A DNA stretch of 45,194 nt from an uncultured Candidatus Saccharibacteria bacterium. Its GTDB lineage: Bacteria; Patescibacteriota; Minisyncoccia; Minisyncoccales; PEYH01. Both the position numbers and the translations under genes were made by a program. Of the stretch, positions 3,736 through 42,020 are shown piece after piece. Under the pieces are notes generated by a model that saw only the letters and a program-made list of their open reading frames with translations, was not told where the DNA came from and searched no databases. Location: assembly GCA_964388775.1 (NCBI GenBank), contig CAYMBW010000003.1:1-45194 (forward strand). Direction: 5' to 3'. Each line of letters opens with the position of its first letter. The stretch's first letter is position 1.

Positions 3736-4564
3736 AATTATTCAGGGCGATGCCCTTGATGTTTTAAAAAAAATTGATGATAGTTTTATTGATTTAAGCA
3801 TCACATCACCACCTTATAATAAGGGCGAAAAACATAAGGGCTGGTTGGTTAAGAATGTTAAATATAACATAGCGAGCGACAGCGTTCCTGAAGAAATCTA
3901 TCAAGAGCAACAAATTAAAGTATTGGATGAAGTTTTTAGGGTTACAAAACCGGGTGGTTCATTTTTCTATAATCATAAAATAAGATGGACGCGAGGTAAA
4001 ATGTTGCACCCAGTTGAATGGGTTCAAAAAACAAAATGGACAATTAGACAGGAAATAACTTGGGACAGAATGATTGCAGCGAATATTAGGGGTTGGCGTT
4101 TTTGGCAGATTGACGAAAGAATTTATTGGCTTTATAAACCAATTGACGGTAATAAAATTGGAAAGGAGTTAAAATCTAAACACGCACTGCTAACTTCAAT
4201 TTGGCGATTTCCTCCTGAAAGAAAAAATGGGCATCCTGCCCCATTCCCGTTGATTCTACCAGCGAGAATAATTTATTCTATTTTAGACGACAAGAAAGGA
4301 GTGGTTTTGGATCCGTATGTTGGCAGCGGAACGACTTGTTTGGCTGCAAAATTATTAGCTTCAAATTATATTGGTATAGATATTTCAAAAGAATACGTAA
4401 AAGACGCGGAAAATAGATTAAAAAATTATCTAAACTATAAAAAAATAGTAGATGAAGAAATATCTAAACATATTGTAGAAAAGACGTTTGAAGAGAGAAA
4501 AAATAATAATAGCAATACTGGAAAATTTCGTAATGGAACCATGATTCAATCAAAATTTTTATAA
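3719..4564 (+). CDS. DNA methyltransferase, N4-cytosine/N6-adenine beta class
   Basis: Catalytic motif IV SPPYN (DLSITSPPYN) lies upstream of the AdoMet motif I DPYVGSGTT. That motif order is beta-class. Confidence 0.8.
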   Translation: MKPKDKIIQGDALDVLKKIDDSFIDLSITSPPYNKGEKHKGWLVKNVKYNIASDSVPEEIYQEQQIKVLDEVFRVTKPGGSFFYNHKIRWTRGKMLHPVEWVQKTKWTIRQEITWDRMIAANIRGWRFWQIDERIYWLYKPIDGNKIGKELKSKHALLTSIWRFPPERKNGHPAPFPLILPARIIYSILDDKKGVVLDPYVGSGTTCLAAKLLASNYIGIDISKEYVKDAENRLKNYLNYKKIVDEEISKHIVEKTFEERKNNNSNTGKFRNGTMIQSKFL

Positions 4565-7923: not shown

Positions 7924-7938
7924 CTCAAGAGAAAACAT

Positions 7939-8021
7939 GCCGGAGTGTTGGAATAGCAGACAATCAGGACTTAAAATCCTGTGGGCTTATGCCCGTGAGG
8001 GTGCAAATCCCTCCTCCGGCA
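7939..8021 (+). tRNA. tRNA-Leu(TAA) with non-canonical D- and T-loops
   Basis: Acceptor GCCGGAG/CTCCGGC, anticodon arm CAGGA-CTTAAAA-TCCTG, long variable arm, T-arm GAGGG-TGCAAAT-CCCTC. The D-loop GAATAGCAGA lacks GG. Confidence 0.8.
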
Positions 8022-8033
8022 TAAATTTGTTTT

Positions 8034-8807
8034 ATGGGAAGAATATCGATAAAAAAAATAAATAGAGACTTTTTTAAGACATGGAACCATGAAATGGCAT
8101 ATGTTTTGGGATATATTGTGGCAGATGGATGTGTTTATAAACGGAAAGATCGTAAAAACAGTTATGTTCTTAATATAACCTCAAAAGATAGGCAACATTT
8201 ATTAAATATTGGGTTAAACATAGTAGCCAATTGCTCTATAAGCACAAAACGCAATTCTACAGGAGATCAATATTGTCAAATCCAAGTATGCAGTAGGGAA
8301 ATTTGTGAAGACTTGATGGGGATAGGAATATTCCCCAGGAAAACGCATAATTTAGATTCTATAGAAGTTCCAGAAAAATATTTTTCTGATTTCGCTCGCG
8401 GATTTTTTGACGGAGATGGAACAGTATATATTTATGAAGTAAATAATACACAACAGATTAAGGCAGGTTTCGTAAGTTCTAGTTTGCCGTTTATAACAAG
8501 ATTTAATCAATCGCTTTGTCATAGATTAGCCATTCCAACAAAGTTTATTCATCAAACAATAGACAGGAAAGGAGTCAAAATTCCAAAATACGATATTTGT
8601 TTTTATGTTGACGATTGTGAAAAATTGTTTAGACTTATGTATAGAGATAATCCGAAGTTGTTTCTTTTTCGCAAGTACGAAATTTTTGAAAAATGGAATT
8701 TTGTCAAAAGGAGACACTATAAGAAGCAGAATTATCCTTCTAAAATCGGATGGCATTTAAATAAAAATAAAGGGGCGGTTAGCTCAGTTGGTAGAGCGCA
8801 TACTTGA
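8034..8807 (+). CDS. LAGLIDADG-family homing endonuclease-like protein (two-motif, monomeric type)
   Basis: Two LAGLIDADG motifs: YVLGYIVADGCV and FARGFFDGDGTV. The ORF fills the tRNA-Leu/tRNA-Val spacer, and its last 35 nt overlap tRNA-Val. Confidence 0.8.
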   Translation: MGRISIKKINRDFFKTWNHEMAYVLGYIVADGCVYKRKDRKNSYVLNITSKDRQHLLNIGLNIVANCSISTKRNSTGDQYCQIQVCSREICEDLMGIGIFPRKTHNLDSIEVPEKYFSDFARGFFDGDGTVYIYEVNNTQQIKAGFVSSSLPFITRFNQSLCHRLAIPTKFIHQTIDRKGVKIPKYDICFYVDDCEKLFRLMYRDNPKLFLFRKYEIFEKWNFVKRRHYKKQNYPSKIGWHLNKNKGAVSSVGRAHT

Positions 8808-8845
8808 CGTGTATGAGGTCATAGGTTCGAGTCCTATACCGCCCA
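8773..8845 (+). tRNA. tRNA-Val(GAC)
   Basis: Acceptor GGGCGGT/ACCGCCC, anticodon arm CATAC-TTGACGT-GTATG, T-arm ATAGG-TTCGAGT-CCTAT. Confidence 0.9.
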
Positions 8846-15660: not shown

Positions 15661-18600
15661 ATGCCAAAATTAAATCCGGAAAAAAATAACAAGAATAAGA
15701 AGGCCGTTCACGAAAATAGCGAAGAGGTGTCAAATAATATAGGGTATATAAAGCCCAGAGAGGTTAGCGAGGAGATGAAAGAGAGCTACATTGATTATGC
15801 GATGTCGGTAATTGTTTCCCGCGCGCTGCCTGATGTAAGAGATGGATTGAAGCCGGTCCACCGGAGAATCCTTTATGCGATGGGAGAGGAGGGTCTTTAT
15901 TATAACGCAAGGTTTAGAAAGTCAGCCACGGTGGTTGGCGCAGTGCTTGGGCGATACCATCCCCACAGCGATACTGCGGTTTATGATTCTTTGGTAAGGA
16001 TGGCGCAGGATTTCTCTTTAAGATATATGCTGGTAAAAGGTCAAGGCAATTTTGGATGTTTCACGGGAGATACCGAAATCAAATTATGTGACGGACGAAA
16101 TTTAAACTTTGAGGATTTGGTTAAAGAACAAAAGAACGGCAAAAGGCATTGGGGATTTGCGTTTAATCATGAAAGCGGAGAAATAGAGATAGCAGAAATC
16201 AAAAAAGCCAGATTAACCAGAAAAAAAGAAAAGATTATGGAAGTGGCCCTGGACAACGGAGAAAAGATTAGGTGTACAATAGATCACCGCTTTATGTTGA
16301 GGAATGGCAGCTACAGACAGGCTCAAGATTTAGCAAAGGGAGATTCCTTGATGCCACTCTATATCAAGCATTATGATGGGGCGGAGGATTTGAATGTTAA
16401 AGGATATGAAATGGCGTATCAGCCGACTAAAAACCATTGGGATTTTATTCATAGATTATCAGATGAGTGGAATTTAAAGAATGGAATTTATAAAGTTGGC
16501 GCTGGAAGAATAAGGCACCATAAGGATTTTAATAAATTTAATAATAACCCAGACAATATTTTACGGATACAATGGGAAGATCATTGGAAAAAACATAAAG
16601 AAATTGCCTCTTCTCGTCACAAAAATGATGCGGAATATGTTGCTAAAATTGCAGAGGGAAGAGAGAAATTTTGGAGTAATCCAAAAAATAGAGAGGCCTA
16701 CTCACGACGAATGTCAGAATCAAATAGAAAGATGTGGAAAAATGTGGGTCGCAGAGCAATATGGATAGAAGCAATGATGAAAAAATGGCGGAACCCGGAA
16801 TACAAGGAATTTATGAGGCAAATGTCAAGCGAAAATCTGAAAAGATTATGGGGAAAAAAGGATTTTCAAGAATTAATGAGCAACCTTAAATCGGCAGAGA
16901 TGAAAGAAAGGTGGCAAGACGAAAAATACAGGGCTCAAATGGCAGAGTATACGAGAATGCTTTCTTTGAAACTATGGGCCAATCCAAAACATAGAGAGCA
17001 TATTTCAAAATTGATGAAGGAGAAATTCCAAGACCCAGCGGTTAGAGAAGGATTGAGCTACCGAGCTAAGAAGCTATGGGCTAACCCTGAATATCGTGCT
17101 AAATATCCTCCAGACCATTTCAAGAAAATGCACGATAAATTGTGGAGTAATCCCGAAATACGCAAATTACACAGAGAGAAAGCTATTAAGCAATGGCAGG
17201 CCCAGGACTTCAGGGATAAATTTATACAAGGCGTAATAAGAGCGAATAAGTATAGGATAGCAGAGAATCCGGAGTATATGAATAATTTAGCAGATAAGGC
17301 CCGGATTTCTCTAAAAAATAAATGGAAAGACCCCCTCTATCAAGAAAGAGTTATTAAGAGTAGGATTTTGGGCTATGCGCATTCTCTTTATCAGAAATAC
17401 GGCAAGATTACTCCGGAGATTTACGAAGAGAAGAGGAGTTTCTCTATTCCGAAAATAGAAAACGCTCTGAATTATTTTAATGATTTTTCAGAGATTGCAG
17501 AGAAAGCCCAAATATATAATCATAAAATAGTTAAAACAAAGATTCTTCGTAGGAGGGAAGACGTCTATGATGTGAGTGTTGATTGTTACCATAATTTTGC
17601 TTTGGGAGCTGGTGTTTTTGTCCATAACTCGATTGATGGGGACCCTCCATCTGCAATGAGATATTCGGAGGCGAAATTGTCCAAAATCGGGCAAGAGATG
17701 TTGAGAGACATAAACAAAGGCACGGTTGATTTCATAGACAATTATGATTCTACCAGAAAAGAACCGACGGTCTTGCCGTCTCCCCTTCCCCAACTTCTAT
17801 TAAACGGCTCATTGGGAATTGCAGTCGGTATGGCGACAAGCATCCCTCCTCACAATCTTGTGGAGACATGTGATGCAGCCATATATTTAATTGATAATCC
17901 GGAAGCGACAACCGAGGAATTGTTTCAATTTATAAAAGGTCCTGATTTTCCAACCGGAGGCATTATTTTCAATCAAAAAGAAATAATCTCTGCTTATGCC
18001 CAAGGAAAGGGGCCTGTTTTGATTCGGGGCAAGGCGGAGATTGTCGAGGAGAAAAAAGGGGGGTGGAAGATTATTATTAATGAAATACCTTATCAGGTTA
18101 ATAAGGCCACTTTGGTAGGTCAGATAGCCAAACTGATTCAGGAAAAGAAAATTAAAGGGGTGAGAGACGCCAGAGATGAATCAGATAGAGAAGGCATCAG
18201 AATCGTTATAGAATTGAAGAAAGAAGCGTTTCCTCAGAAGGTTTTGAATTGCTTATACAAAGCCACCGACTTGCAGAAAAAATTCCATCTTAATATGTTA
18301 GCCCTGGTTGATGGAATTCAACCCAAGGTTTTATCTTTGGCGGAAATGCTCGGATATTTCTTAAAACACCGTCAGGAGGTGGTTTTGAGGAGAGCCAAAT
18401 TTGATTTAGCCAAAGCCAAGGCAAGAGAGCATATTCTTTTGGGGTTGGCAAAATGTTTGGCAAATATTGACCAAGTTATTGAAACCATTAAGAAATCCAA
18501 AAACCGGGAAGACGCCAAGAGTAATCTTAAGAAAAAATTCAAACTTACCGACATTCAGGCAGAAGCCATTTTAGAGACCAAACTTTCTGCCTTAGCCCGG

Positions 18601-19737
18601 CTTGAGAGGCAAAAAATAGAAGCAGAGCTTAAGGAGATACAAGCCAAAATTGAAGAATTGTCTGAAGTTATTAAAAGTCCGGCAAAGATAAAGGCAGTTA
18701 TTAAACAAGAACTCAAAGAATTAAAAGAATCCTATCCTGACGCGCGCCGAACCAAGGTGTATAGGAAAAACGCGGAAGAAATATCAGAAGAGGACTTGGT
18801 AGCGGAAGAAGAGGTTTTAATTACTCTTACCAATAAGGGCTATGTCAAAAGAGTGAGCCCTTCTTCCTATAAGATTCAAAAGAGAGGCGGGAAAGGCATT
18901 GCCGGCATTAAGACCCATGATGATGATTTTGTAGAACATTTTTTCTTGGCGAATACGCTTGATAAATTATTGGTTTTTACCGATTCGGGCAAGGTTTTTT
19001 CAATGCCCGCTTATGAAGTGCCTTCCGCGACCAGAATTTCAAAAGGCAGAGCATTGGTCAATTTTCTGGAAATCAGCCCGGAAGATAAAATTTTAGCGGT
19101 TTTGTCTCTTGGGAAGAAGGACGACAGCGAACAGATGAAATATTTAGTGATGGCGACCAAGAATGGTATAATTAAAAGAACCGCGCTTGAAGAGTTCCGC
19201 AATTTGAGGAGTTCCGGTTTGATAGCGATTCGGCTTAAGAAGGGCGATTCTTTGAGGTCTGTTAAAAAGACAAGCGGTAAAAGCGAAATAATTTTAGTAA
19301 GCAAGCAGGCCCAGTCAATCAGATTCAAAGAAGAACAGATAAGGCCGATGCAGAGAAGCGCTGCCGGCAACAAGGGAATGCATCTCAAGAAAGATGATGA
19401 GGTAATCGGAATGGAGGCGGTTGAGCAAGACCAAGACAAGGATTATATTTTAATAGTGACTAGCAAAGGATACGGGAAGAGAAGTAGAATCTCCACTTAT
19501 CGCCAGCAAAGCAGAGGAGGGACCGGGATTATGACAGCCAAATTGACCGCCAAGACAGGGGATTTGGTTAAGGCGGAAATCGTTAAAGGAGATGAAGAGT
19601 TAATATTCATATCAAGAAAAGGTCAGGTTATAAGGACTACGGCCAAAGGGATATCCGTGCTCGGCAGAGCGACTCAAGGAGTTAGGATAATGCGCTTAGA
19701 CGAGGGCGACAAAGTCATTTCATTAATAAAATTGTAG
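15661..19737 (+). CDS. gyrA: DNA gyrase subunit A, interrupted by a 524-aa intein
   Basis: Exteins carry the GyrA signatures [27 protein letters not shown] / [17 protein letters not shown], and C-terminal beta-pinwheel repeats. Exteins total 834 aa. Confidence 0.95.
16057..17628 (+). mobile_element. Intein (Hint splicing domain plus HNH-type endonuclease plus tandem W-x-NPEYR repeat array)
   Basis: Starts [10 protein letters not shown] (block A). Has the TxxH block CTIDHRF. Ends [22 protein letters not shown], followed by +1 Ser. HNH-like segment [27 protein letters not shown] at about 16504-16600. Confidence 0.9.
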
Positions 19738-19744: not shown

Positions 19745-20269
19745 ATGGTTGATTTTTTGGAGCCGGAAAAAATAATAGAGCAGATTCCTTTAAGTCAGGA
19801 TTGGCAGACAGCGGAGTTTGGCTGTGGTCCGGGCGGTTTTGCCATTGCTTTGGCAAGGCGGGTGCCGAAAGGAATGGTTTATGCCTTGGATATCCAGGAA
19901 GAACCGCTTTCCGCTTTAAAAGGAAGAGCCAAGGGAGAGGGCTTGCCCAATATCAAAACAATACAAGGCGATTTAGAGGAGCCCAAGGGCTCTACCCTCA
20001 AAGACGAGTCAATGGATTTGGTGCTGATTGCGAATACCTTATTCCAAATAGAGGACAAGGAAGCGTTTTTAAAAGAAGCCAAGCGGGCGCTTAAGCGGAA
20101 AGGAAACTTAGTGATAATTGATTGGAACCCGGATTCTCCTTTTGGGCCCGAAGAAAAAAGGATTTCTTTTGAAGAAGCGCATAAAATAGTCAAGTTTATG
20201 GACATTAAGCTGGTAAAAGAATTAGAGGCCGGCACTTATCATTGGGGAGCAATTTTCGTGAAGCTGTAA
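19745..20269 (+). CDS. Class I SAM-dependent methyltransferase
   Basis: Motif I EFGCGPGGFAIALA, an acidic residue after beta-2 (YALDIQ), and a small size of 174 aa. Confidence 0.7.
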   Translation: MVDFLEPEKIIEQIPLSQDWQTAEFGCGPGGFAIALARRVPKGMVYALDIQEEPLSALKGRAKGEGLPNIKTIQGDLEEPKGSTLKDESMDLVLIANTLFQIEDKEAFLKEAKRALKRKGNLVIIDWNPDSPFGPEEKRISFEEAHKIVKFMDIKLVKELEAGTYHWGAIFVKL

Positions 20270-20283: not shown

Positions 20284-21264
20284 ATGAAAAAAAAGATTAT
20301 TTTTTTAAGCTTGATTCTGCTGGGAGTGTTTTTTGTCCAGAATATAATCTATGCTGCTTCGGCCAGTAATGGCCTTTATAGTATTAGCTTAATTTCTTCT
20401 AACAATAATCCGATTGTGGGGCAAGCAATTGATTTAACAGCCCAGGTGATAGAAGGAGGAGGCGCTTGGTGCACACTTACTTTTGGGGATAGCACAGCAA
20501 CAGGAATTTTACAATGTCAGCAAACCGAATGCCATGCTGACCCTAATTGCACTTGGTCTATTCCTACTCTCCCTGGCGACCCTGGGAGTTGTTCTTATTT
20601 TTTTAGCCATACATATAATACAAGCGGACCCAAAACAGCCCTTTTCCATTGTGAAATACCTACTTGGCCTCTTGATGTGACCTTAGGCCTGGATGTTAGT
20701 AATGCGCCCCCGGTTTGCGCGCCTGACGGGTGTAATGGTATTTGTCCGGCAAATTGCGATGTGAACCAGGACCCTGATTGCGGATGTTTGGGGGGCAATG
20801 CCTGTTGTCCTCTTGGTTGTGATAACGGTTCTGACAGCGATTGTCCGCCTTCCCCGGCCTGCAATGATTTTGTTTGTAATCAAATATGCGGGGACAATTG
20901 CGATGTGAGCCAGGACCCTGATTGTGGATGTTTGGGAGGAAATGGGTGTTGTCCTCATGGTTGCGCCAACGCTTCTGACAGCGATTGTCCGCTCGTATCT
21001 GTTGACAGCTATGATAATCCCATAGTGGCTAATAATATAGTAGAGTTTATCCAGCAAGCAGTAATCCTTCTTTTTACCATTACTTTTCCCCTTGTTATTC
21101 TGCTGATTATAATCGGCGGATATGTAATGGTAACTTCGGGCGGGATTCCTTCCAGATTTGATAAGGGGAAGAAGATAGTTATTTGGGCTTTAGTTGGATT
21201 TGCTATAGCCGCCGCTTCTCGGGGAATTATCGCTTTGGTTGAGATGATTATAGGAAGACAATAA
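20284..21264 (+). CDS. Secreted PKD-like plus tandem Cys-rich repeat protein with C-terminal TrbC/VirB2-like membrane hairpin (paralogue 1)
   Basis: Signal peptide MKKKIIFLSLILLGVFF. Degenerate PKD signature FGD...FSHTYNTSGP. Two 48-aa Cys-rich repeats. C-terminus NPIV...IIGGYVMVTSGGIPSRFDKGKKIVIWALVGFAIAAASRGIIAL. ATG at 20284 is preferred over 20242. Confidence 0.7.
   Translation: MKKKIIFLSLILLGVFFVQNIIYAASASNGLYSISLISSNNNPIVGQAIDLTAQVIEGGGAWCTLTFGDSTATGILQCQQTECHADPNCTWSIPTLPGDPGSCSYFFSHTYNTSGPKTALFHCEIPTWPLDVTLGLDVSNAPPVCAPDGCNGICPANCDVNQDPDCGCLGGNACCPLGCDNGSDSDCPPSPACNDFVCNQICGDNCDVSQDPDCGCLGGNGCCPHGCANASDSDCPLVSVDSYDNPIVANNIVEFIQQAVILLFTITFPLVILLIIIGGYVMVTSGGIPSRFDKGKKIVIWALVGFAIAAASRGIIALVEMIIGRQ
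20713..21000 (+). repeat. Tandem 144-nt (48-aa) intragenic duplication
   Basis: TGCGATGTGAACCAGGACCCTGATTGCGGATGTTTGGGGGG at 20755 versus TGCGATGTGAGCCAGGACCCTGATTGTGGATGTTTGGGAGG at 20899. The offset is exactly 144 nt. Confidence 0.9.
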
Positions 21265-21271
21265 AAATAAT

Positions 21272-22051
21272 ATGAGAATTAAAAAAAATTCAATAAAATT
21301 ATTTTCCACAATGATTCTCTTCTTTTTTATTTTTGCGCCTTTTATTGCATTCGCTATCAATATAAACGATATGTATGTGGAGGTTTCAGTGGACCCGGTA
21401 TTTTTAGGAAGTTCAAGCCAAATTGAAATCAAGGTCAATCAAAATCCTCCCACTGCAACTCATTGGGATATATCTGTGGATTTTGGTGACGGGCAGCCGG
21501 CGCATAGTGGTGCATGCATAGTCGACTGGAATCTGTTACATTGCAGCGTAAGTTTTTCACATCAATATGGTAGTCCTGGAAGTTATACTGTTGTTGCAAC
21601 GGTTTGTGACGGTTCGGATGCTACACAGTGCAAAACCGGTTCTAAAAATGCTGTTGTGAATTCTCCTCCTGTCTGTGGAAATGGAACACTGGAGCCACCT
21701 AACGAACAATGTGATGACGGTAATACTGTTTCCGGAGACGGATGCAGCGGGAATTGCCGGATAGAGGGACCACCGCAACCGCCCACTACCAACAATGATT
21801 TGAATCCCCTTAATGCCGCTACTTTTGGAGAACTATTCAGGGATATTGCGAATATGATTTTTTGGGTGGCAATAGTTTTAGGGCCCTTGTTGATAATTGT
21901 CGGCGGATTTATGATAATTTTCGCCGGTTTGGAAACGGGCAAGATTATTTTGGGAAAGAAAATTATTCTATACACTGCCGTAATTCTTGGTATAATATTA
22001 ATAATAAAGGCAATGACTTCTTTCTTCGCGCCTGATATAACTTTTCAATAA
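21272..22051 (+). CDS. Secreted PKD-like plus CGNG..CDDGN..GDGC Cys-rich repeat protein with C-terminal TrbC/VirB2-like hairpin (paralogue 2)
   Basis: Signal peptide. PKD signature WDISVDFGDG...FSHQYGSPGSYTVVATV. Repeat CGNGTLEPPNEQCDDGNTVSGDGCSGNC. C-terminus NPLNAATF...IIVGGFMIIFAG...GKKIILYTAVILG. Confidence 0.7.
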   Translation: MRIKKNSIKLFSTMILFFFIFAPFIAFAININDMYVEVSVDPVFLGSSSQIEIKVNQNPPTATHWDISVDFGDGQPAHSGACIVDWNLLHCSVSFSHQYGSPGSYTVVATVCDGSDATQCKTGSKNAVVNSPPVCGNGTLEPPNEQCDDGNTVSGDGCSGNCRIEGPPQPPTTNNDLNPLNAATFGELFRDIANMIFWVAIVLGPLLIIVGGFMIIFAGLETGKIILGKKIILYTAVILGIILIIKAMTSFFAPDITFQ

Positions 22052-22056
22052 AAATT

Positions 22057-22644
22057 ATGAAAAAAGCAACCTTAATTTTTTCTTTAGTTCTGACAATCCT
22101 TTTTCTGTTTGTGATTGCGAGCCAAACCCAGGCGCAAATCACTATTAGCAATCCTTTGACGCCGGGGAATATAAGCTTTGATGAAATGCTTACCAGGGTC
22201 TTGAGCTGGATTTTTGGTTTCGCTTTGGCAATTGGCGTTTTAATGATTATAATCGGCGGTTATATGATGGTCGTTTCCGCCGGAGACCCCCAGAAATTTT
22301 CCACCGGCAGAAAAGTGGTTGTTTACGCTTTGTCAGGCATTGCCATTGTGGCAATATCAAGAGGGATAATCGCTTTGACAGAACAAATATTTCCCCAAGG
22401 AGTGGAAGCAGGCACGGCTTTGTCTAATATAATCAATTATGCTTTCGGAGCTTTATTGGCAGTAGCTGTCCTGATGTTTATTGTGGCTGCTTATCTTTTG
22501 GCAACAGCAGGCGGAAATCCGGAACAAATGAAACAAGCCAGGAGCTGGCTGATATATGCTGCCATAGGTTTAGCTGTGGCAGTAATTAGCAGGGGCTTGG
22601 TTGCTTTGGTTGGCGTAATCATCGGCGCCGACACAACCATTTAA
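22057..22644 (+). CDS. Secreted protein with two tandem TrbC/VirB2-like hairpin domains (paralogue 3)
   Basis: Signal peptide ending QTQAQ. First hairpin: NPLTPG...IIGGYMMVVSAGDPQKFSTGRKVVVYALSGIAIVAISRGIIAL. Second hairpin: INYAFG...AAYLLATAGGNPEQMKQARSWLIYAAIGLAVAVISRGLVAL. Confidence 0.7.
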   Translation: MKKATLIFSLVLTILFLFVIASQTQAQITISNPLTPGNISFDEMLTRVLSWIFGFALAIGVLMIIIGGYMMVVSAGDPQKFSTGRKVVVYALSGIAIVAISRGIIALTEQIFPQGVEAGTALSNIINYAFGALLAVAVLMFIVAAYLLATAGGNPEQMKQARSWLIYAAIGLAVAVISRGLVALVGVIIGADTTI

Positions 22645-22675
22645 TTAACATTTAGTTAAAATAAAGTAGGTTTTT

Positions 22676-23434
22676 ATGAGAAAACACCATTTTACTATTA
22701 TTTTATTAATAATCCTATTTTCCACTCCAAACTTGGCGTATGCCATAACTTATTCTATCGCCAATGTTTTTATTTCTGAAATTAGTCCTACAAATTTATC
22801 AATAGGACAAACCGTAAATGGGCAGCTTGTTATTGAAGTGACTTGTTTAAATGACCAGTATTCAGGTACTCCGAGTATAGATTTCGGAGATGGTTCGGTT
22901 GAAGAGCAATCGGGTGGTTCTTGCCTTTGTGTATCCGTAAGTTCCAGTTCCGGCTCTGGGCCTCTTGGGTTAGGAGATGCTGAGGTCAAAAAAGTGAGGT
23001 GCAGTTATCCTTTTAGCCATGCCTATAATAATGCCGGAACATTTACAGTAATTCCAAAAACTACTAGCTCAACTATTGGCGGAAGTGTAACAACCGGAAG
23101 TTCTTCTACGGGACAAAGAGAAACCGTGACTGTCGCCGAAAGAGCAACACCGGCTCCGATTCCGGGGGGGAGTATTAATCCCTTAGTGGCAACCACCACA
23201 GTGGGACTTATAAAAGATATCACGGACAGGATTTTCATATATTTAAGCGCATTAGCGGTTTTGTTTGTGATGATAGGCGGATTTAATATCCTTACCGCCG
23301 CCGGAAGCCCGACACAGGTTACCAAGGGAAGAAAAATTATTGTCTTTACTATTATCGGCTATGCGTTGATTTTACTGGCAAGGGGGATTGCTTTGCTTAT
23401 CGTGAGAATCTTGGGTATTAATGTTGTGTTTTAG
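22676..23434 (+). CDS. Secreted PKD-like protein with Ser/Thr/Gly-rich linker and C-terminal TrbC/VirB2-like hairpin (paralogue 4)
   Basis: Signal peptide ending NLAYA. PKD signature IDFGDG...FSHAYNNAGTFTV. C-terminus NPLVATTT...MIGGFNILTAAGSPTQVTKGRKIIVFTIIGYALILLARGIALL. Confidence 0.7.
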   Translation: MRKHHFTIILLIILFSTPNLAYAITYSIANVFISEISPTNLSIGQTVNGQLVIEVTCLNDQYSGTPSIDFGDGSVEEQSGGSCLCVSVSSSSGSGPLGLGDAEVKKVRCSYPFSHAYNNAGTFTVIPKTTSSTIGGSVTTGSSSTGQRETVTVAERATPAPIPGGSINPLVATTTVGLIKDITDRIFIYLSALAVLFVMIGGFNILTAAGSPTQVTKGRKIIVFTIIGYALILLARGIALLIVRILGINVVF

Positions 23435-23547
23435 AGACCTGTGGACAAATCGCTTGCTTTTTTTTACTTGTGGACTAAAATAGGATAATGAAACAAAACT
23501 TTAAAGGTCGGTTAATTAAGAAAAAATAATAAACAAATTAAAAAACA

Positions 23548-23907
23548 ATGAATAAGAAAATATTGGGAATAATGAGCTTAGTCACTGTTGTGGGAATGTT
23601 TGCAATGCCGGTTTTGGCGCAGACCGTTGCTGTCACCCCAACGTCGCCGCCATCATACACGGCTACCCAAGCGCTTGGCATAATAGGTACGCTCATTAAT
23701 TATGCTTTTGGATTTCTTTTGGCAATAGCGGTTCTGATGCTTATCTTCGCTGCTTATATGTATGTTACCGCCGGGGGGAACCCTGAAACAGTTGGCAAAG
23801 CAAACAAAATGTTGATGTATGCTTTAATCGGCATAGCAATTGCGGTTATTGTTAGAGGATTAATCGCATTAGTTGGCGCATTGCTCGGTCAAACTATCAG
23901 CGTATAA
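23548..23907 (+). CDS. Minimal TrbC/VirB2-like pilin-type protein (signal peptide plus hairpin only; paralogue 5)
   Basis: Signal peptide ending PVLAQ, then INYAFGFLLAIAVLMLIFAAYMYVTAGGNPETVGKANKMLMYALIGIAIAVIVRGLIAL. It has its own upstream gap and a strong terminator. Confidence 0.7.
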   Translation: MNKKILGIMSLVTVVGMFAMPVLAQTVAVTPTSPPSYTATQALGIIGTLINYAFGFLLAIAVLMLIFAAYMYVTAGGNPETVGKANKMLMYALIGIAIAVIVRGLIALVGALLGQTISV

Positions 23908-23937: not shown

Positions 23938-23978
23938 AACAACTCCCACCATGCTCTTGAAGGCGGGAGTTGTTTTTG
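23938..23978 (+). terminator. Rho-independent terminator
   Basis: AACAACTCCCACC pairs with GGCGGGAGTTGTT (13 bp, one A-C mismatch) around an 11-nt loop, followed by TTTT. Confidence 0.75.
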
Positions 23979-23993: not shown

Positions 23994-24166
23994 GCCCCTG
24001 TGGCGGAATTGGCGACTTGCCCTCCACCAATGTGCTGGGATGGCGAAATTGGCAAACGCACTGGGTTTAGGACCCAGCGGGGAGACCCTTGAGAGTTCGA
24101 ATCTCTCTCCCAGCACATTGGTGGGGGGTCTCGTAAGAGGTGCAGGTTCAACTCCTGCCGGGGGCA
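23994..24166 (+). ncRNA. Composite nested tRNA: outer type-II tRNA-like scaffold whose anticodon loop is replaced by a whole tRNA-Leu
   Basis: Outer acceptor GCCCCTG (23994-24000) pairs with CGGGGGC (24159-24165), then discriminator A. D-arm with GG loop. 13-bp helix 24021-24033 with 24115-24127. Variable hairpin TCTC-GTAA-GAGG. T-arm GCAGG-TTCAACT-CCTGC. Confidence 0.6.
24034..24115 (+). tRNA. tRNA-Leu(TAG), nested inside the outer tRNA-like scaffold
   Basis: GCTGGGA TG GCG AAATTGGCAAA CGC A CTGGG TTTAGGA CCCAG CGGGGAGACCCTT GAGAG TTCGAAT CTCTC TCCCAGC A. Confidence 0.9.
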
Positions 24167-34299: not shown

Positions 34300-35358
34300 A
34301 TGTCATTATTTTCTAAAAGTTTTTTAGGGATTGATGTGGGGACTTCTTCTATCAAAATAGTGGAGTTGCAAAAAGGCAAGGGCATCGTTTTATCTAACTA
34401 CGCTGTTTTAGGCGCTGATTATTTTGACAAAGGCGATTTTCAGACCAGGGAGAAGGGAATGCTTTCTATTTCTGAAGACAACATCTCCGAGGCGCTTAAA
34501 GCTATGTTGAAAGAAGCAGGGATAAAATCAAAACAAGCATTTTTTTCTATCCCCGATTACGCAACCTTTTTTACCACTTTCGACCTGCCCTCAATGTCTG
34601 TCGAAGAAATCCCGGAAGCGGTGAAATACGAAGCGCCGCGCCGTATCCCTTTGCCTTTATCAGAAGTAATTCTTGATTGGCAGCTTATTAAGGGCGGTCC
34701 TTCTGAAGAAGGCCGGACGCCGTTGCGAATTTTGTTGGTAGCGGTGCCTAAAGAGGTAATTAACCAATATCAGAACATAGCGCTGTCGGTAGGGCTTAAA
34801 GTAATTGCCTTGGAAGCGGAGGTATTTGCCCTGATGAGGGCTTTGGTTAAATATCAGGACAAGAGCAACATTATTTGCCTGGTTGATGTCGGCGAAAGAA
34901 GCACCACAATTAATATCGTGGCTCAAGGAATTTTAAAGGTCTCCCATAGCTTCGATGTGGCCGGAGAAGATTTCACAAAGGCGTTTTCCGATGCTCTGCA
35001 GATTGATAAAAGAAAAGCGGAAACAATAAAAAGGATGTATGGACTTACTGATAAGAATCCGGGCATTAAAGAGATAGTCAAGCCGGAAGCAGAAGCGATT
35101 CTTAAAAAGATTCAAAACATTAGAGACGAATTGTATTTAGAAGATAAGGAGAAGATAGGGAAGGTCATTATTTCGGGCGGAGGAGCTATGCTGGCCGGCG
35201 GGGCAGATTATTTTTCCAAAAGATTGGATTTGCCGGTAGAGTTGGCTGACCCGTTTATAGATATTTCTTTCCCCCCGACACTCAGCGAGGCATTGAAAAA
35301 AATCAGTTCTGGATTTACAATAGCAATAGGGATGGCTCTTCGCGGTTTTAACAAGTAA
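34300..35358 (+). CDS. pilM: Type IV pilus assembly protein PilM (actin-like ATPase fold)
   Basis: N-terminal GIDVGTSSIKIVEL phosphate-1 motif, later DVGERSTTINI and ISGGGAML. First gene of the pilMNO block. Confidence 0.8.
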   Translation: MSLFSKSFLGIDVGTSSIKIVELQKGKGIVLSNYAVLGADYFDKGDFQTREKGMLSISEDNISEALKAMLKEAGIKSKQAFFSIPDYATFFTTFDLPSMSVEEIPEAVKYEAPRRIPLPLSEVILDWQLIKGGPSEEGRTPLRILLVAVPKEVINQYQNIALSVGLKVIALEAEVFALMRALVKYQDKSNIICLVDVGERSTTINIVAQGILKVSHSFDVAGEDFTKAFSDALQIDKRKAETIKRMYGLTDKNPGIKEIVKPEAEAILKKIQNIRDELYLEDKEKIGKVIISGGGAMLAGGADYFSKRLDLPVELADPFIDISFPPTLSEALKKISSGFTIAIGMALRGFNK

Positions 35359-35375
35359 AATTATTATTTTTTCTT

Positions 35376-35915
35376 ATGGTGCAGGTAATCCCTAGAAAAG
35401 TCGCTCCTCAAGAGTCCTTGGTCAAAAAGATATTGCCCTGGCTTTCTTTGTTATTGATTGCAATAATGGTTATCCTTTATTTCGTCTTTAATTTTCAACA
35501 CCAAGAGGCAGCGACTTCTTTAGAAGAAGTCAAAAATGAGCTGGCCGGGACCCAAACACAAGAACAAACAGAGCTCCAGAATACCGTTTTGGGTTTTCAA
35601 AGAAGAATTGATGACGTTGCCATTCTATTAAAGGGCAGGGAAAAAGTTTCAGGCATATTGACATTTCTTGAGATATACATCCATCCGAAAGTATATTTTG
35701 ATTTAATGTCTCTAAACTTTGAAAATAGATTGTTGAATCTGCAAGGGATTGCCGAAGATTTTACCAGTTTAGGCCAGCAGATTTTTGCCTTCCAGCAGGA
35801 TGCTTTTATTAAGGAAATAAAATTATCTAATGTCGCCCTTTCAGAAGAGGGAGGAGTAAAATTTGCCATAGAATTATCTTTACCGGATAAAAACGAGAAT
35901 ACGACTAAGAAATAA
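35376..35915 (+). CDS. pilN: PilN-like bitopic pilus alignment protein
   Basis: Short cytoplasmic N-terminus, a single TM (LPWLSLLLIAIMVILYFVF), a coiled-coil and then a ferredoxin-like region. Assignment rests on its position after pilM. Confidence 0.5.
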   Translation: MVQVIPRKVAPQESLVKKILPWLSLLLIAIMVILYFVFNFQHQEAATSLEEVKNELAGTQTQEQTELQNTVLGFQRRIDDVAILLKGREKVSGILTFLEIYIHPKVYFDLMSLNFENRLLNLQGIAEDFTSLGQQIFAFQQDAFIKEIKLSNVALSEEGGVKFAIELSLPDKNENTTKK

Positions 35916-35920
35916 TTATA

Positions 35921-36445
35921 ATGAAATACGCTATTATTATTGTCGCCATAAGCATATTGATTTCCCTGATATTGGGCGTTTTCTTAGTTTGGCCCAGCTA
36001 TCGGGGTTTCAGCGAAACCCAGAATCAGTTAGTTCAGAGAAAATTGCAATTAGAAAATCAGAACAAATACATTCAATCGCTGAAAACCGCTAAACAAGAA
36101 ATGGACGAGCGAGGGGAAATAGTTTCTAAGGTTGAGAGTGCTCTCCCTATTGGTCCCGATATGCCTTCTTTGCTTGAGTTTTTGCAAAATGCCGCTGTTT
36201 CATCAGGCGTTAGCTTGGATAAGATTAGTTGGGAGGATACTTCTCCGCGCAACGAAAAAGATAGAATCAAGGAGCATTTTTTTAGTGTCGAAGTGGCTGC
36301 TTCATATTTTTCATTCAAAAACTTTTTATTTGCCCTTGAGACAAGCTCCCGATTGATAAATATAGAAGAAGTGAATTTTAATGTGCCAGTCGCCGAAGGG
36401 CAGTCATCCTTAATTAAGATTAGAGCAAGCATTAGTTCGTACTGA
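35921..36445 (+). CDS. pilO: PilO-like bitopic pilus alignment protein
   Basis: N-terminal TM, a coiled-coil (QLVQRKLQLENQNKYIQSLK) and a C-terminal globular part. Assignment rests on its position after pilN. Confidence 0.5.
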   Translation: MKYAIIIVAISILISLILGVFLVWPSYRGFSETQNQLVQRKLQLENQNKYIQSLKTAKQEMDERGEIVSKVESALPIGPDMPSLLEFLQNAAVSSGVSLDKISWEDTSPRNEKDRIKEHFFSVEVAASYFSFKNFLFALETSSRLINIEEVNFNVPVAEGQSSLIKIRASISSY

Positions 36446-36491
36446 TAACTGATAACTGATAACTGATAAATGATTAATAATAAGTGATTAA
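36443..36491 (+). repeat. Period-7 heptamer array, 7 units
   Basis: TGATAAC x3 TGATAAA TGATTAA TAATAAG TGATTAA. The first TGA is the pilO stop, and the array ends 2 nt before the next ATG. Confidence 0.9.
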
Positions 36492-36493
36492 TT

Positions 36494-36781
36494 ATGGCCA
36501 TAGTGTTTTATCAAAAAAAGAAAAAAGAAATTTATATAGCAATTGCTGGATTGCTTTTGATTACCGCGCTTATTTTTGTTCTCATTAAAATTAAAGGAGG
36601 CGGATTTGTTGCAAAAGAATCAACCTTATCTGTTCCGGAAGCCAAGGAAGTAAAGATAGATTTTCAAAAGATAGAGGAGGAAATTTGGAACGACCTGAAA
36701 ACATTTACTCCGATTTCTCCTTCTCCAGAGGGCATGGGGAGGGATAATCCTTTTGCTCCTCCGCTTCCAGCAGCAAAGTGA
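36494..36781 (+). CDS. Small bitopic protein of the pilus locus (possible PilP-like role)
   Basis: 95 aa, one TM (IAIAGLLLITALIFVLI), and a C-terminal GRDNPFAPP motif reminiscent of R-[DN]-P-F motifs in pilus accessory proteins. Confidence 0.35.
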   Translation: MAIVFYQKKKKEIYIAIAGLLLITALIFVLIKIKGGGFVAKESTLSVPEAKEVKIDFQKIEEEIWNDLKTFTPISPSPEGMGRDNPFAPPLPAAK

Positions 36782-36854
36782 TGACCGCGCCATTATCAGA
36801 GAAAATTTTTATAGCTTTTTATAGTCCACTCGTGCGGGTGGCTTTCTTCTTAAA

Positions 36855-38588
36855 ATGAATTTAATAAACCAGCTGTTAAAACAAAAGCTTGTTAATAAAA
36901 AGACGGCCGATGCTTTGGTGGAAGAATCCGAGGCCTCCGGACGAACCGTTGAGGAGATGATATTAAGCAAGCAACTATTGCCGGAGAACAAGCTATTTCG
37001 GATAAAGAGCGACATTTTGGCTATTCCTTTAAAAGAAATTATCTCGCAAGATATCCCTGCTGATATTTTAGAGCTTATCCCGCAGGATTCCGCTGAACAT
37101 TATAAGATGGTTCCTTTGGAAAAGAAACAGAATATGCTGGAAGTGGCAATGGTTTATCCGGAAGACCTAAAGGCCCAAGAGGCCTTAAATTTTTTAGCCC
37201 GGCAGCGAGGATTCAATTATCGAGTGAGTTTGATTACTCTTAGCGGGTTTCAAGATTTTTTAAAAAAATATCAAAATTTAGGAAGAGAGGTCAAAACCGC
37301 TCTTCAAGAATTAGAGAGCCAGCTTCAACCCGGACCCCGGGAATCCACACTAAGAAGCACAAAAGAAATAATTCAAAAGAGGAGTGAAGCGCCTATTAGC
37401 AAGACCGTTGCTGTTATTTTAAAGCACGCGGTTGAAGGCAGAGCGTCAGATATACATATAGAGCCAATGTCGGAGAGGAGCAGAGTAAGATTTCGGTTAG
37501 ATGGCATCCTGCATTCCAGCTTATTTCTTCCCAAAGAGGTTCATCCTTCTATCGTGGCCAGGATTAAGATTATTTCTAAGTTAAAAATAGACGAAACGCG
37601 TATTCCTCAAGACGGCAGATTTTCTGTTAATATAGATAATCAAAATATTGATTTTAGGGTTTCAACATTTCCAACGACTCTGGGCGAAAAAGTGGTAATG
37701 AGGGTGCTTAATCCTGATTTAAGGGTTTCCACTTTTGAAGAATTAGGGCTTGCCGGAAGGAATCTGGAGATTTTGAAAAGAGCGGCCAAAAGGCCTTATG
37801 GTATGATTCTGTCAACCGGGCCGACTGGCTCCGGTAAAACCACTACCCTGTATGTGGTTCTGGACTCTGTTAATAAAGAAGGCGTCAATATCGTTACCCT
37901 GGAAGACCCGGTGGAATATTTTATTAGCGGGGTAAGTCAATCGCAAGTCAAACCGGAAATTGGTTATAGCTTCGCCACAGGGTTAAGACATGTTTTGAGG
38001 CAGGACCCTGATATAATCATGGTCGGAGAGATTCGCGACAATGAAACTGCGGAATTGGCTACACACTCAGCGCTTACCGGTCATTTAGTCCTTTCTACTA
38101 TTCATACTAATAATGCTTTGGGCGCAATTCCAAGAATGATTGATTTGGGCGTTAGGGCGTTCTTACTGCCTTCCAGCATCAATGTGATAATGGCCCAGAG
38201 ATTAGTGAGACGGCTTTGTCCCCATTGCAAGAAAAAGATAGCAGCAAGCGAAAAAGTGAAGGAATTGATTACTGAAGAGATGAAGAATCTGCCAGCTTGG
38301 GCCAAGGATGAATATGGAACCGGAACAAATATTCAAATTTGGGAACCGGTCGGTTGCAGTCAGTGCGGAGAAAGCGGGTATATCGGAAGAGTTGGAATAT
38401 TTGAGATTTTAGAAATGACCAAAGGGCTTGGAGATATAATTATGTCCGAGCCGAGCGAGAAGAGTATGTCAGTCGAGGCCCACAATCAAGGAATGATAAA
38501 TATGAGACAGGACGGAGTATTAAAAGTTTTGAAAGGGGTGACTTCCATAGAGGAAGTTGTTAGAAGCACTTCAGAAGACAGAGATTAA
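36855..38588 (+). CDS. pilB: Type IV pilus assembly ATPase PilB (GspE family)
   Basis: N-terminal GSPII_E-N-like domain, Walker A GPTGSGKTT, Asp/His boxes, Walker B IIMVGEIRD, and a tetracysteine CPHC...CSQC motif. Confidence 0.9.
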   Translation: MNLINQLLKQKLVNKKTADALVEESEASGRTVEEMILSKQLLPENKLFRIKSDILAIPLKEIISQDIPADILELIPQDSAEHYKMVPLEKKQNMLEVAMVYPEDLKAQEALNFLARQRGFNYRVSLITLSGFQDFLKKYQNLGREVKTALQELESQLQPGPRESTLRSTKEIIQKRSEAPISKTVAVILKHAVEGRASDIHIEPMSERSRVRFRLDGILHSSLFLPKEVHPSIVARIKIISKLKIDETRIPQDGRFSVNIDNQNIDFRVSTFPTTLGEKVVMRVLNPDLRVSTFEELGLAGRNLEILKRAAKRPYGMILSTGPTGSGKTTTLYVVLDSVNKEGVNIVTLEDPVEYFISGVSQSQVKPEIGYSFATGLRHVLRQDPDIIMVGEIRDNETAELATHSALTGHLVLSTIHTNNALGAIPRMIDLGVRAFLLPSSINVIMAQRLVRRLCPHCKKKIAASEKVKELITEEMKNLPAWAKDEYGTGTNIQIWEPVGCSQCGESGYIGRVGIFEILEMTKGLGDIIMSEPSEKSMSVEAHNQGMINMRQDGVLKVLKGVTSIEEVVRSTSEDRD

Positions 38589-38614
38589 TAATTGATAATT
38601 AATTATTGGAAGAT

Positions 38615-38977
38615 ATGAAAAAAGTACTTTTAGTGGAAGATGACCCGTTTTTAATAGATATTTATTCTACCAAACTTAACGAATCCGGTTTTGAGGTTCA
38701 TTCGGCAAAGGATGGAGGAGAAGTGTTGGATACTTCCAAAAAACTTAAGCCGGATGTAATCATTCTGGACATTGTTTTGCCCCAGATGGATGGGTGGCAG
38801 ATATTAAAGCAACTGAAGGCAGAAGAGGGATTGAAAGCGACGAGGATTATCATCCTGTCTAATTTAAGCCAGAAAGAAGAAGTGGAAAAAGGGCTTTCTC
38901 TGGGAGCTGATAAATATTTAATTAAATCCGATTACACTCCCACTCAAGTTATCGAAGAGATTGGCAAAATGTTTTGA
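38615..38977 (+). CDS. Stand-alone response-regulator receiver domain (CheY-like)
   Basis: The acidic pocket VEDD, the phospho-acceptor context ILDIVLPQMDG, and the conserved Lys in KYLIKS are all present. ATG at 38615 is preferred over the TTG at 38606. Confidence 0.8.
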   Translation: MKKVLLVEDDPFLIDIYSTKLNESGFEVHSAKDGGEVLDTSKKLKPDVIILDIVLPQMDGWQILKQLKAEEGLKATRIIILSNLSQKEEVEKGLSLGADKYLIKSDYTPTQVIEEIGKMF

Positions 38978-39013
38978 TTTAAGAATTTCTGATTAGCGTT
39001 ATTGCCCAATAAA

Positions 39014-40105: not shown

Positions 40106-40148
40106 TAAATCTGCTAAAATTAAATTTTTCATTAAATAACTTAATTCA

Positions 40149-41363: not shown

Positions 41364-41400
41364 TGATTCCCGCCTTACCTAAGTTATTCACATATTTCCA

Positions 41401-41998: not shown

Positions 41999-42020
41999 TT
42001 AATTGTTCTCGTTTTGTCCT

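Follow-up and report, generated by a model that had tools for sequence, protein, structure and literature searches.

The window analysed here, a 45,194-nt stretch of a Paceibacteria/Parcubacteria genome, carries a chromosomal array of five anciently diverged pilin-like genes of the VirB2/TrbC superfamily (PF18895), which we call P1 to P5. Our preferred reading, to which we assign a probability of roughly 55%, is that of a pilin array in which P5 and P3 would supply the bulk of an oligomer or filament, P1, P2 and P4 would be sparse head-bearing subunits, and the T4SS would lie elsewhere. All five co-oriented ORFs (20284-23907) were confirmed, the ATG start of P1 being backed by orthologues, and the successive gaps from the upstream methyltransferase gene through P5 are 14, 7, 5, 31, and 113 nt (Table 1). 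The ORFs and profile comparisons agree with the original prediction of a tandem array whose members each combine a signal peptide with a common C-terminal module. In each signal peptide, a basic n-region is followed by a hydrophobic h-region and a site of the AxA type (IYA, AFA, TQA, AYA, and VLA in P1-P5), from which the products are predicted to be exported by Sec with cleavage of the signal peptide.

Table 1. Features of the array and its surroundings (positions in the window; aa positions in each protein).
Feature	Residues (aa)	Position (nt)	Strand	Basis or remark
SAM-methyltransferase gene		19745..20269	+	14 nt upstream of P1; Pfam methyltransferase matches
P1		20284..21264	+	ORF, 326 aa
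P1 signal peptide	1-24	20284-20355	+	sequence
P1 Ig-like head	~25-142		+	AF2, Foldseek
P1 two 48-aa Cys-rich repeats	145-192, 193-240	20716-21003	+	79% identical
P1 hairpin module, VirB2-like	~241-326	21004-21264	+	PF18895 28.8 bits
P2		21272..22051	+	ORF, 259 aa
P2 signal peptide	1-28		+	sequence
P2 PKD domain	~42-121		+	Pfam 26 bits, cut-off 23.5
P2 myxococcal-type Cys-rich acidic repeat	134-165	21671-21766	+	TIGR02232, DUF4215
P2 divergent hairpin module, ending FFAPDITFQ	~174-259		+	37 bits, leave-one-out profile
P3		22057..22644	+	ORF, 195 aa
P3 signal peptide	1-26		+	sequence
P3 hairpin module a	27-~107		+	PF18895
P3 short linker, predicted outside	108-119		+	between modules a and b
P3 hairpin module b	to 195		+	PF18895
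P4		22676..23434	+	ORF, 252 aa
P4 signal peptide	1-23		+	sequence
P4 PKD-like head	~24-126		+	PKD E 0.04, sub-threshold
P4 Ser/Thr/Gly linker	127-166	23054-23173	+	sequence
P4 hairpin module	167-252		+	PF18895 29.1 bits
A/T-rich gap before P5, 113 nt		23435..23547	+	measured; proposed internal promoter
P5		23548..23907	+	ORF, 119 aa
P5 signal peptide	1-24		+	rest of protein is hairpin module only
Intrinsic-terminator-like hairpin and U-run, array end		23938..23978	+	fold energy, terminator scan
tRNA-Leu		24034-24116		downstream of terminator hairpin

The module spans ∼85 aa and consists of two hydrophobic helices joined by a basic loop (KGKK, TGRK, KGRK), for which AF2 models predict helical hairpins. 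Because P3 carries two, there are six copies in five genes, aligning at 24-43% identity. In leave-one-out tests, every copy matches the profile built from the other five, P2 at 37 bits (E 1e-13) and the remaining copies at 61-81 bits; judged by these scores, the copies are related far beyond chance. The P2 module departs from the motif originally described: it is divergent and lacks (S/A)RG. By the positive-inside rule, the module would be a cytoplasmic-membrane hairpin with its basic loop in the cytoplasm and both termini outside, so that anything fused at either end would be extracellular.

Several lines of evidence connect this module with TrbC/VirB2-like pilins. PF18895 (T4SS_pilin) scores above its cut-off in P1, P3 (53.7 bits in two stretches, in line with the claim that P3 carries the module twice), and P4; P5 is borderline (26.3 bits, cut-off 26.6), and Pfam gives no PF18895 match for the P2 module. 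Pfam likewise reports no match of PF04956 (TrbC/VirB2) to any of P1-P5 themselves; homologues of P3 exceed the PF04956 cut-off (P0168, 28.1 bits; P0169, 31.5 bits), as does the top family match (P0001, 54.9 bits). An hhalign comparison with canonical VirB2 genes adjoining virB1 and virB3 gives a score of 23.7 (P 5.5e-4) in register over helix alpha1 and TM1, with reversed controls at 10-13. No pilin was found among the structural matches of the P3 model via Foldseek or among PDB sequences by profile search. A failure of HMMs to detect this relationship had been named beforehand as a possible refutation; the relationship was detected, and the idea is not refuted. A profile of the window modules retrieves 42,586 cluster representatives, in agreement with the statement that a T4SS-pilin-like Pfam family is abundant in CPR genomes.

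The heads differ from one another. The AF2 model of P1 contains a beta-sandwich at aa 23-140 (pLDDT 70-83) ahead of a helical hairpin at aa 249-323, and Foldseek identifies the former only as a generic Ig-like fold. The two Cys-rich repeats noted in P1 are 79% identical over 39 aa, and the myxobacterial-type repeat of P2 is borne out by TIGR02232 (myxo_disulf_rpt, 50.6 bits) and DUF4215 (35 bits); the Ser/Thr/Gly linker of P4 was also located. A PKD-like signature had been claimed for three heads. It holds for P2, while P4 stays below threshold and Pfam detects no PKD in P1. An orthologue of P4 (L041) has an additional N-terminal Ig-like domain, which matches PKD above the cut-off (29.1 bits, aa 33-122). 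P3 has no head; its AF2 model shows two hairpins from four long helices, and 10 two-module orthologues were found. P5 is, as proposed, a signal peptide and module with nothing else. Heads have been swapped, as the first gene at locus L010 joins a P2-like head to a P1-like module. Cargo occurs at either hairpin end among family members; in one relative, a P2-type module is followed C-terminally by 1,100 aa of cargo (Peptidase_C1, 123.7 bits; PA14).

The order gyrA-methyltransferase-array, with the methyltransferase gene as conserved left anchor, recurs in the genomes of ∼24 related Patescibacteria species. All five paralogues are matched by 1:1 orthologues in unchanged gene order, even between species with no more than 46-66% identity in housekeeping proteins; loss of co-conservation in relatives, the other possible refutation named in advance, was thus not what we found. 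Such constancy supports a set of subunits that would be fixed. In two distant relatives, a gene for an extracellular solute-binding protein lies between the methyltransferase gene and the array. P5 is the last gene in every array examined and the best conserved member (93% identity to its L006 orthologue), among the slowest-evolving sequence of a region whose flanks are 69-91% identical; the heads, at 38-56% identity to the nearest species, evolve fastest. This pattern, together with cargo at either end, would fit a minimal major subunit accompanied by head-bearing minor subunits. The conservation of the head-less P5 and the frequency of family proteins with 2-8 tandem hairpins support a function that would be intrinsic to the module. 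The suggestion that P5 has its own promoter in the 113-nt gap is unsupported, as a consensus scan reported no site there. The terminator proposed at the array end is real as a hairpin (ΔG -19.5 kcal/mol, z -3.9) ahead of a U-run, with a terminator scan match at 23953-23970.

Taken as a whole, the original interpretation is partly supported. In the mechanism we favor, the hairpins would associate with one another like VirB2/TraA subunits, and P5 together with P3 would make up most of an oligomer or filament derived from the membrane. P1, P2, and P4 would be sparse subunits whose Ig/PKD-like heads, raised on Cys-rich or Ser/Thr-rich stalks, project outward as host- or glycan-binding adhesins, a role suggested by the domains found on family members (PKD, TIG, fn3, He_PIG, NPCBM_assoc, and MopE), by the Ig-like head of P1, and by head swapping. 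A VirB4-type T4SS with its genes at another genomic locus would probably carry out assembly. Partner specificity would depend on the heads, which diverge rapidly and shuffle, and conserved hairpins would keep the subunits mutually compatible. A bulky head on every subunit would not be accommodated in a VirB2-type helical lattice; we therefore infer, and only infer, the stoichiometry. To our knowledge, a pilus of the VirB2-like array type has never been seen in any Patescibacterium. The built-in heads could let these ultrasmall cells recognize hosts.

The hairpin could instead be a mere two-helix membrane anchor for secreted adhesins or enzymes, mostly C-terminal, with neither filament nor T4SS, which we consider unlikely. 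The module nearly always sits at the extreme terminus of family proteins, and its cargo is diverse (PKD, TIG, fn3, He_PIG, and the papain-like protease). The surroundings also suit an anchor and count against our preferred reading: as predicted, the window has no VirB4/VirD4-type ATPase gene, and genes for VirB4, VirB6, VirB3, and VirD4 are absent from the window and from the adjoining 10 kb on its left and 6 kb on its right; about 30 kb on the left and 27 kb on the right of the array are free of T4SS ATPase genes, and in about 30 related loci none of the four genes was found in the 8-10 kb around the array. In the published tabulation, VirB4 occurs in about 2,400 of 3,026 assemblies, and two relatives with a syntenic array (L074, L079) have MAGs listed as VirB4-positive (Table S1), which favors the pilin reading; 13 of 14 listed Wildermuthbacteria and the closest tabulated relative (L007, a 463 kb MAG), listed as VirB4-negative, weigh against it (Quiñonero-Coronel et al. 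2025, PMC12102498). An anchor, however, leaves P5 and the two-module P3 with nothing to hold, although P5 is the most conserved; nor does it account well for frequent proteins made of tandem hairpins alone, for homology to polymerising pilins, or for five distinct modules maintained as 1:1 orthologues.

VirB2 arrays of Bartonella and Anaplasma have been proposed to serve antigenic or host-range variation, and the paralogues might by analogy be interchangeable major pilins of one pilus, as has been suggested for Patescibacteria (PMC12102498). The low identity among paralogues and the fast head evolution are compatible with this, but it seems to us quite improbable: each paralogue keeps its own orthologue and place, neither recent duplication nor gene conversion nor cassette-like repeats were apparent, the architectures (bare, double, headed) are qualitatively unlike, and spacings of 5-31 nt resemble an operon rather than switchable cassettes. 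Very doubtful is a T4SS-independent membrane oligomer serving as a pore or conduit for host-cell uptake, with the heads docking the partner. Polypeptides with 5-8 fused hairpins exist in the family and could close into a ring, and several related lineages are tabulated without VirB4, which may nevertheless reflect MAG incompleteness; the solute-binding protein linkage occurs in two loci only, and neither a transporter ATPase nor a permease is encoded nearby.

The pilin-array reading invites comparison with known systems. Type IV pilus tip and minor pilins offer a functional analogy, pairing a conserved polymerisation module with few adhesive subunits, but their fold and machinery are unrelated; PF07963, the N-methylation motif present in the pilins of the type IV cluster confirmed downstream (41549-45098), was absent from P1-P5 in a Pfam search. 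In NCBIfam, P3 and P5 score highest with NF045849 (80 positions), the profile of the Mycoplasma ICE pilin-like conjugal transfer proteins Mbov_0395 and MMCAP2_0565, at 27.6 and 30.4 bits, respectively, below the 40-bit cut-off; these small pilin-like hairpin proteins of monoderm conjugation systems are encoded within ICE conjugation modules, unlike the array. With TrbC/VirB2/TraA (PF04956), the array shares a signal peptide ahead of a hairpin whose two helices are joined by a basic loop, and profile-level homology through family members; it differs in its monoderm host, in the missing direct PF04956 match, and in the lack of adjoining virB1, virB3, and virB4. We know of no canonical VirB2 or TraA with large N- or C-terminal extracellular domains or tandem hairpins, whereas here such domains are N-terminal and in relatives also C-terminal. 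In the F pilus, the TraA termini are outside and the loop is in the lumen (Costa et al. 2016, PMC5018250), so that fused heads would sit on the surface.

Tandem VirB2-like arrays of Patescibacteria are already published, and the locus therefore belongs among them: 441 arrays of 2-11 genes, with paralogue identity averaging 25%, are most abundant in Microgenomatia and Saccharimonadia, and adhesins such as PrgB were not detected in that dataset (PMC12102498). In Southlakia epibionticum, the pilin array at the T4SS locus (SEML1_0006-0019 region) is essential (Wang et al. 2023, PMC10633639). Our array shares with these the phylum, PF18895, and tandem genes for small, signal-peptide-bearing hairpin proteins of similarly low identity. 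It differs in its Paceibacteria/Parcubacteria lineage, in its gyrA-methyltransferase locus outside a T4SS gene cluster, in the 100-210-aa Ig-like or Cys-rich heads of three of its five members, and in the fused double pilin P3. The searchable papers on Patescibacteria arrays make no mention of domains fused to array pilins; apparently undescribed are thus the adhesin-like heads (in relatives, a papain-like protease) fused to a pilin module, the multi-hairpin polypeptides, and a conserved array locus away from virB4.

The five tandem paralogues P1 to P5 are co-oriented genes that start 14 nt downstream of a SAM-methyltransferase gene (MT) and are spaced by gaps of 7, 5, 31, and 113 nt. On inspection of the sequences, each N-terminus has a basic n-region, a hydrophobic core, and an AxA-type cleavage site, and each C-terminus has a short basic loop between two hydrophobic helices. 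The hydropathy pattern, the AxA sites, and the basic loops, which are found in 6/6 modules, match a pilin-type signal peptide plus a two-TM hairpin. The five proteins are predicted to be exported by Sec, with a topology predicted to place the fused domains outside. The C-terminal ∼85 aa (the module) yields six alignable copies, two of them contributed by P3, that are 24-43% identical, and in leave-one-out tests a profile built from five copies recovers the sixth in every case. The P2 module scores 37 bits (E 1e-13) in this test, and the remaining copies score 61-81 bits. The original prediction of five co-oriented genes with a signal peptide and a conserved C-terminal module is therefore borne out by the ORFs, the alignment, and the profiles; all six copies belong to the common module, but its SRG motif is absent from the P2 copy, which is the most divergent. 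The strong terminator placed behind P5 is also found, as an intrinsic-terminator-like hairpin. The further suggestion that P5 has its own promoter was not supported, as a consensus scan finds none in the 113-nt gap.

Coordinates of the pilin-like array and of the features downstream of it
Feature	Position	Strand	Description
P1	20284-21264	+	ORF
P2	21272-22051	+	ORF
P3	22057-22644	+	ORF
P4	22676-23434	+	ORF
P5	23548-23907	+	ORF
Intrinsic-terminator-like hairpin	23938-23978		dG -19.5 kcal/mol, z -3.9, then U-run
Type IV pilus cluster	34300-45098		complete

Membership in PF18895 (T4SS_pilin) was judged at the gathering cut-off of 26.6 bits. P1 (28.8 bits), P3 (53.7 bits, two stretches), and P4 (29.1 bits) score above it, P5 lies slightly under it at 26.3 bits, and P2 gives no match to this family. 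For both P3 and P5, the NCBIfam family that matches best, with a score below cut-off, describes a pilin-like conjugal transfer protein of Mycoplasma ICEs (NF045849). At E<=1e-3, the six-module profile matches 42,586 of 1.84 billion cluster representatives (50% identity clustering), and in sampled family members PF18895 is present in 44/48 and PF04956 (TrbC/VirB2) also in 9/48. None of P1-P5 matches PF04956 at E<1; the P3 homologues P0168 (28.1 bits) and P0169 (31.5 bits) exceed its cut-off of 27.9 bits, and the seven-module family protein P0001 reaches 54.9 bits. When small family members were compared by hhalign with annotated VirB2/TrbC genes flanked by virB1 and virB3 on plasmids of Alphaproteobacteria, the match was in register across helix alpha1 and TM1 with a score of 23.7 (P 5.5e-4, probability 30%), and reversed controls scored 10-13 (P 0.1-0.3).

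Other searches were negative: the six-module profile finds nothing at E<=10 among all PDB sequences, tblastn of P5 and P0169 against 72,556 plasmids gives nothing or one chance match, and a homologue search with the P2 module alone returned none. Pairwise and structure searches find nothing, and the tie to canonical conjugative pilins, as read from the sequences, appears to be real but at profile level only. With this qualification, the HMM check agrees with the proposed relationship to TrbC/VirB2-like pilins, and we consider the classification probably correct: by profile, P1-P5 would form a VirB2/TrbC-superfamily pilin-like array. Type IV pilins can be eliminated as the identity of these proteins, as the PF07963 N_methyl motif is absent from P1-P5 and present in the true type IV pilins at 41549-42464. 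The published description of a patescibacterial VirB2 array, with at least two pilin genes in tandem or one non-pilin gene apart, low mutual identity, and a Patescibacteria genome (PMC12102498), applies to these five adjacent genes with modules 24-43% identical.

The heads are the Ig/PKD-like outer parts of P1, P2, and P4, in all three of which a PKD-like signature had been proposed. Taking as PKD a PF00801 score of at least 23.5 bits or an Ig-like beta-sandwich fold, the signature holds for P2 (26 bits), falls below the cut-off in P4 (14.3 bits, E 0.04), and is not detected by Pfam in P1. In the AF2 model of P1 (mean pLDDT 61), aa 23-140 form a beta-sandwich (pLDDT 70-83) with Foldseek matches to the Ig-like domains of ICAM-1, VNAR, and CARDB, aa 249-323 form a helical hairpin (pLDDT 75-82), and the Cys-rich aa 143-248 are unmodelled. 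The model thus suggests that the P1 head is Ig-like and not specifically PKD. The accessory elements were recovered as described: two Cys-rich repeats of 48 aa in P1, 79% identical across 39 aa, to which no Pfam family matched; a repeat of the myxobacterial type at P2 aa 134-165 (TIGR02232, myxococcal cysteine-rich acidic repeat, 50.6 bits, cut-off 20.8; DUF4215, 35.4 bits, cut-off 27); and a Ser/Thr/Gly linker in P4. The AF2 model of P3 (mean pLDDT 67) has one helix for the signal peptide and four long ones that pair up as two hairpins. Its Foldseek search as a monomer against the PDB gives no significant match (best E ∼1, generic helical bundles), which we take as neutral on a VirB2 fold, neither for nor against, because a helical hairpin is poorly discriminating.

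The window covers chromosomal housekeeping sequence from a Patescibacterium, with tyrS, infB, ftsH, rpsA, tsaD, recG, gyrA with an intein, and 16 tRNA genes. The type IV pilus (T4P) that had been noted downstream of the array is a complete cluster with pilMNO, pilB, a response regulator, pilT, pilC, five pilins, and a prepilin peptidase. Just left of the window, a second T4P cluster lies at L033:1-8815 (ERZ27248936 k141_511643), with pilB-like and pilC genes, pilM, and two large N_methyl proteins (603 and 335 aa); the two clusters are separate, with ∼45 kb between them. As had been stated for VirB4/VirD4-type ATPases in the window, none of VirB4, VirD4, VirB6, or VirB3 is found in the 45-kb window, in the 10 kb leftward, or in the 6 kb rightward, and no components of a type IV secretion system (T4SS) occur within 8-10 kb of the array at related loci. 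A mobile element or a recent duplication was ruled out by the lack of DNA repeats, the conserved synteny, and the housekeeping flanks. The same 20 kb recurs at 99.995-100% identity in several lake metagenomes, and the five metagenome copies give no signal of strain-level head diversity.

Three further observations concern the flanks. GyrA (15661-19737; 1,358 aa) is split into two DNA_topoisoIV halves by an intein (PF14890). Long GyrA ORFs are also seen in the closest relatives, L006 (1,246 aa, a stop-to-stop ORF) and L007 (1,056 aa), and GyrA is ∼830 aa in more distant ones; the intein has therefore been gained or lost within the clade. A dense tRNA cluster holds a LAGLIDADG homing-endonuclease-like ORF at 8034-8807 (PF14528, E 2.6e-10) between tRNA-Leu (7938-8022) and tRNA-Val (8773-8845), the start of which it overlaps. 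In the interval 3004-4564, an N6/N4 DNA methylase gene (3719-4564) is overlapped at its start by a 243-aa ORF without a Pfam match; together they could constitute a small restriction-modification pair.

GTDB species genomes were scanned three times, with the methyltransferase, P5 orthologues, and a methyltransferase alignment as seeds. About 24 genomes of Patescibacteria have the order ftsH - S1 - MBL - gyrA - MT - array. The nearest are Patescibacteria/Parcubacteria MAGs, and the linkage of MT and array persists to ∼40% methyltransferase identity. In the near clade, the order is fixed as P1-type, P2-type, P3-type, sometimes P4-type, and P5 invariably last, with a separate orthologue for every paralogue. 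The array is kept as a five-part set, and the check on its co-conservation in relatives came out in favor of a cluster. Against the nearest species, L006, the flanking proteins are 69-91% identical, P5 is 93% identical, P3 is 84% identical, and the modules of P1, P2, and P4 are 69-84% identical; the heads, at 49%, 56%, and 38%, are the lowest of the region. The heads are thus the fastest-evolving parts, and P5 is slow.

Judged from their sequences, heads are also shuffled and variable in size among relatives: the first gene of L010 has a P1-like module carrying a P2-like head, the P2 orthologue of the same genome has no head, and the P4 orthologue of L008 has an additional PKD domain. Distant syntenic arrays consist of 2-4 pilins, all head-less, and heads are therefore a clade-level elaboration. 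In two distant syntenic genomes, one a Portnoybacteria and the other a Paceibacterota MAG, a gene for an extracellular solute-binding protein (SBP_bac_1) sits between MT and array (L016:9796-11112 and L017:10519-11823), with no ABC permease noted beside it. Across the wider family, ∼28 of the 150 best representatives have at least 110 aa ahead of the first module, 118/178 proteins scored with the module HMM have 2-8 tandem modules, and the module is almost always terminal. Two family proteins, P0001 (606 aa) and P0002 (820 aa), have 7-8 tandem hairpin copies in one polypeptide, or 14-16 helices.

The gene at the P2 position of a further relative (L039:5475-9206, CAYYED010000024.1) encodes 1,244 aa with a signal peptide and an N-terminal P2-type hairpin, followed by Peptidase_C1 (papain family, 123.7 bits), Ig-like/PKD domains, PA14, an InlB B-repeat, and FlgD_ig. 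This would be an enzyme tethered C-terminally to a VirB2-like module. Cargo is therefore possible at either end of the hairpin, which fits a topology with both termini outside; in the F pilus, the two ends of TraA lie on the exterior of the filament, and the lumen is lined by the basic loop that joins the helices (PMC5018250). The first array gene of Yanofskybacteria CG10_big_fil_rev_8_21_14_0_10_46_23 (L079:8991-10040) is a further case of cargo C-terminal to the hairpin, which lies near its N-terminus; no Pfam family is recognised in the ∼200-aa C-terminal domain, and its assignment as a cell-wall peptidase was dropped for lack of Pfam support.

We tentatively propose, at a probability of roughly 0.3, that in this Paceibacteria clade the VirB2-like hairpin is a general display scaffold, in which a housekeeping locus encodes a fixed five-subunit heteromeric surface filament or oligomer with swappable Ig-like adhesins outside (in relatives, a papain-like protease and PA14), perhaps with no need of a T4SS. 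In our main reading, held with moderate confidence, the hairpins would co-assemble, with P5 together with P3 making up the bulk of the assembly and P1, P2, and P4 acting as sparse adhesin-displaying subunits. That the hairpin is a pure membrane anchor is unlikely in our estimate, as this fails to account for the head-less P5 being the best-conserved member and for proteins made up of several hairpin modules and nothing else. Simple antigenic variation as the role of the paralogues is more doubtful still, being at odds with the 1:1 orthology and the operon-like packing.

In the main reading, assembly would probably be driven by a T4SS encoded elsewhere. Table S1 of PMC12102498 gives VirB4 as present in two syntenic relatives, L074 (Portnoybacteria CG10_..._36_7) and L079 (Yanofskybacteria CG10_..._46_23, with a five-gene headed array). 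The same table gives VirB4 as absent from L007, the nearest tabulated relative and a small MAG (463 kb), and from 13/14 listed assemblies of Wildermuthbacteria, whereas neighbouring Paceibacteria groups are mostly positive. We note that this five-gene array is also present in L042, a MAG that bears the label Wildermuthbacteria. The location of the arrays away from virB4, along with the several VirB4-negative related lineages, leads us to question whether the hairpins need a T4SS; a T4SS-independent oligomer is conceivable but of low probability in our estimate.

Patescibacteria make up a large part of bacterial diversity, and the cultivated members live attached to host cells. If the headed paralogues are adhesins, they are concrete candidates for host-specificity determinants. 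Pilin arrays in CPR bacteria are, as a class, already published. Wang et al. (2023), to our knowledge the sole genetic study of a patescibacterial T4SS, described a predicted pilin series within the T4SS cluster of Southlakia epibionticum and found both the cluster and its pilin array to be essential (PMC10633639), and a 2025 review leaves it open whether Patescibacteria have a T4SS pilus. Searching with PF18895 and PF04956, Quiñonero-Coronel et al. (2025) found VirB4 in about 2,400/3,026 assemblies, VirB2-like pilins in 1,948 VirB4-containing assemblies (near virB4 in 1,135), and 441 VirB2-like arrays of 2-11 genes with a mean identity of 25% (PMC12102498). Their survey of 3,035 genomes reported no T4SS adhesins such as PrgB, and its text makes no mention of domains fused to pilins (PMC12102498). 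If some pilin paralogues bear fast-evolving Ig-like heads, the missing T4SS adhesin may reside in the pilin set. What appears to be new, within the literature searched, is the fusion of adhesin or enzyme domains to the pilin module, the tandem-hairpin polypeptides, the conserved array locus away from virB4, and the contrast in conservation between head and module. Should the display-scaffold reading be true, this would be the first family of conjugative-type pilins into which adhesin or enzyme domains are built, and a candidate determinant of host specificity in uncultured episymbionts.
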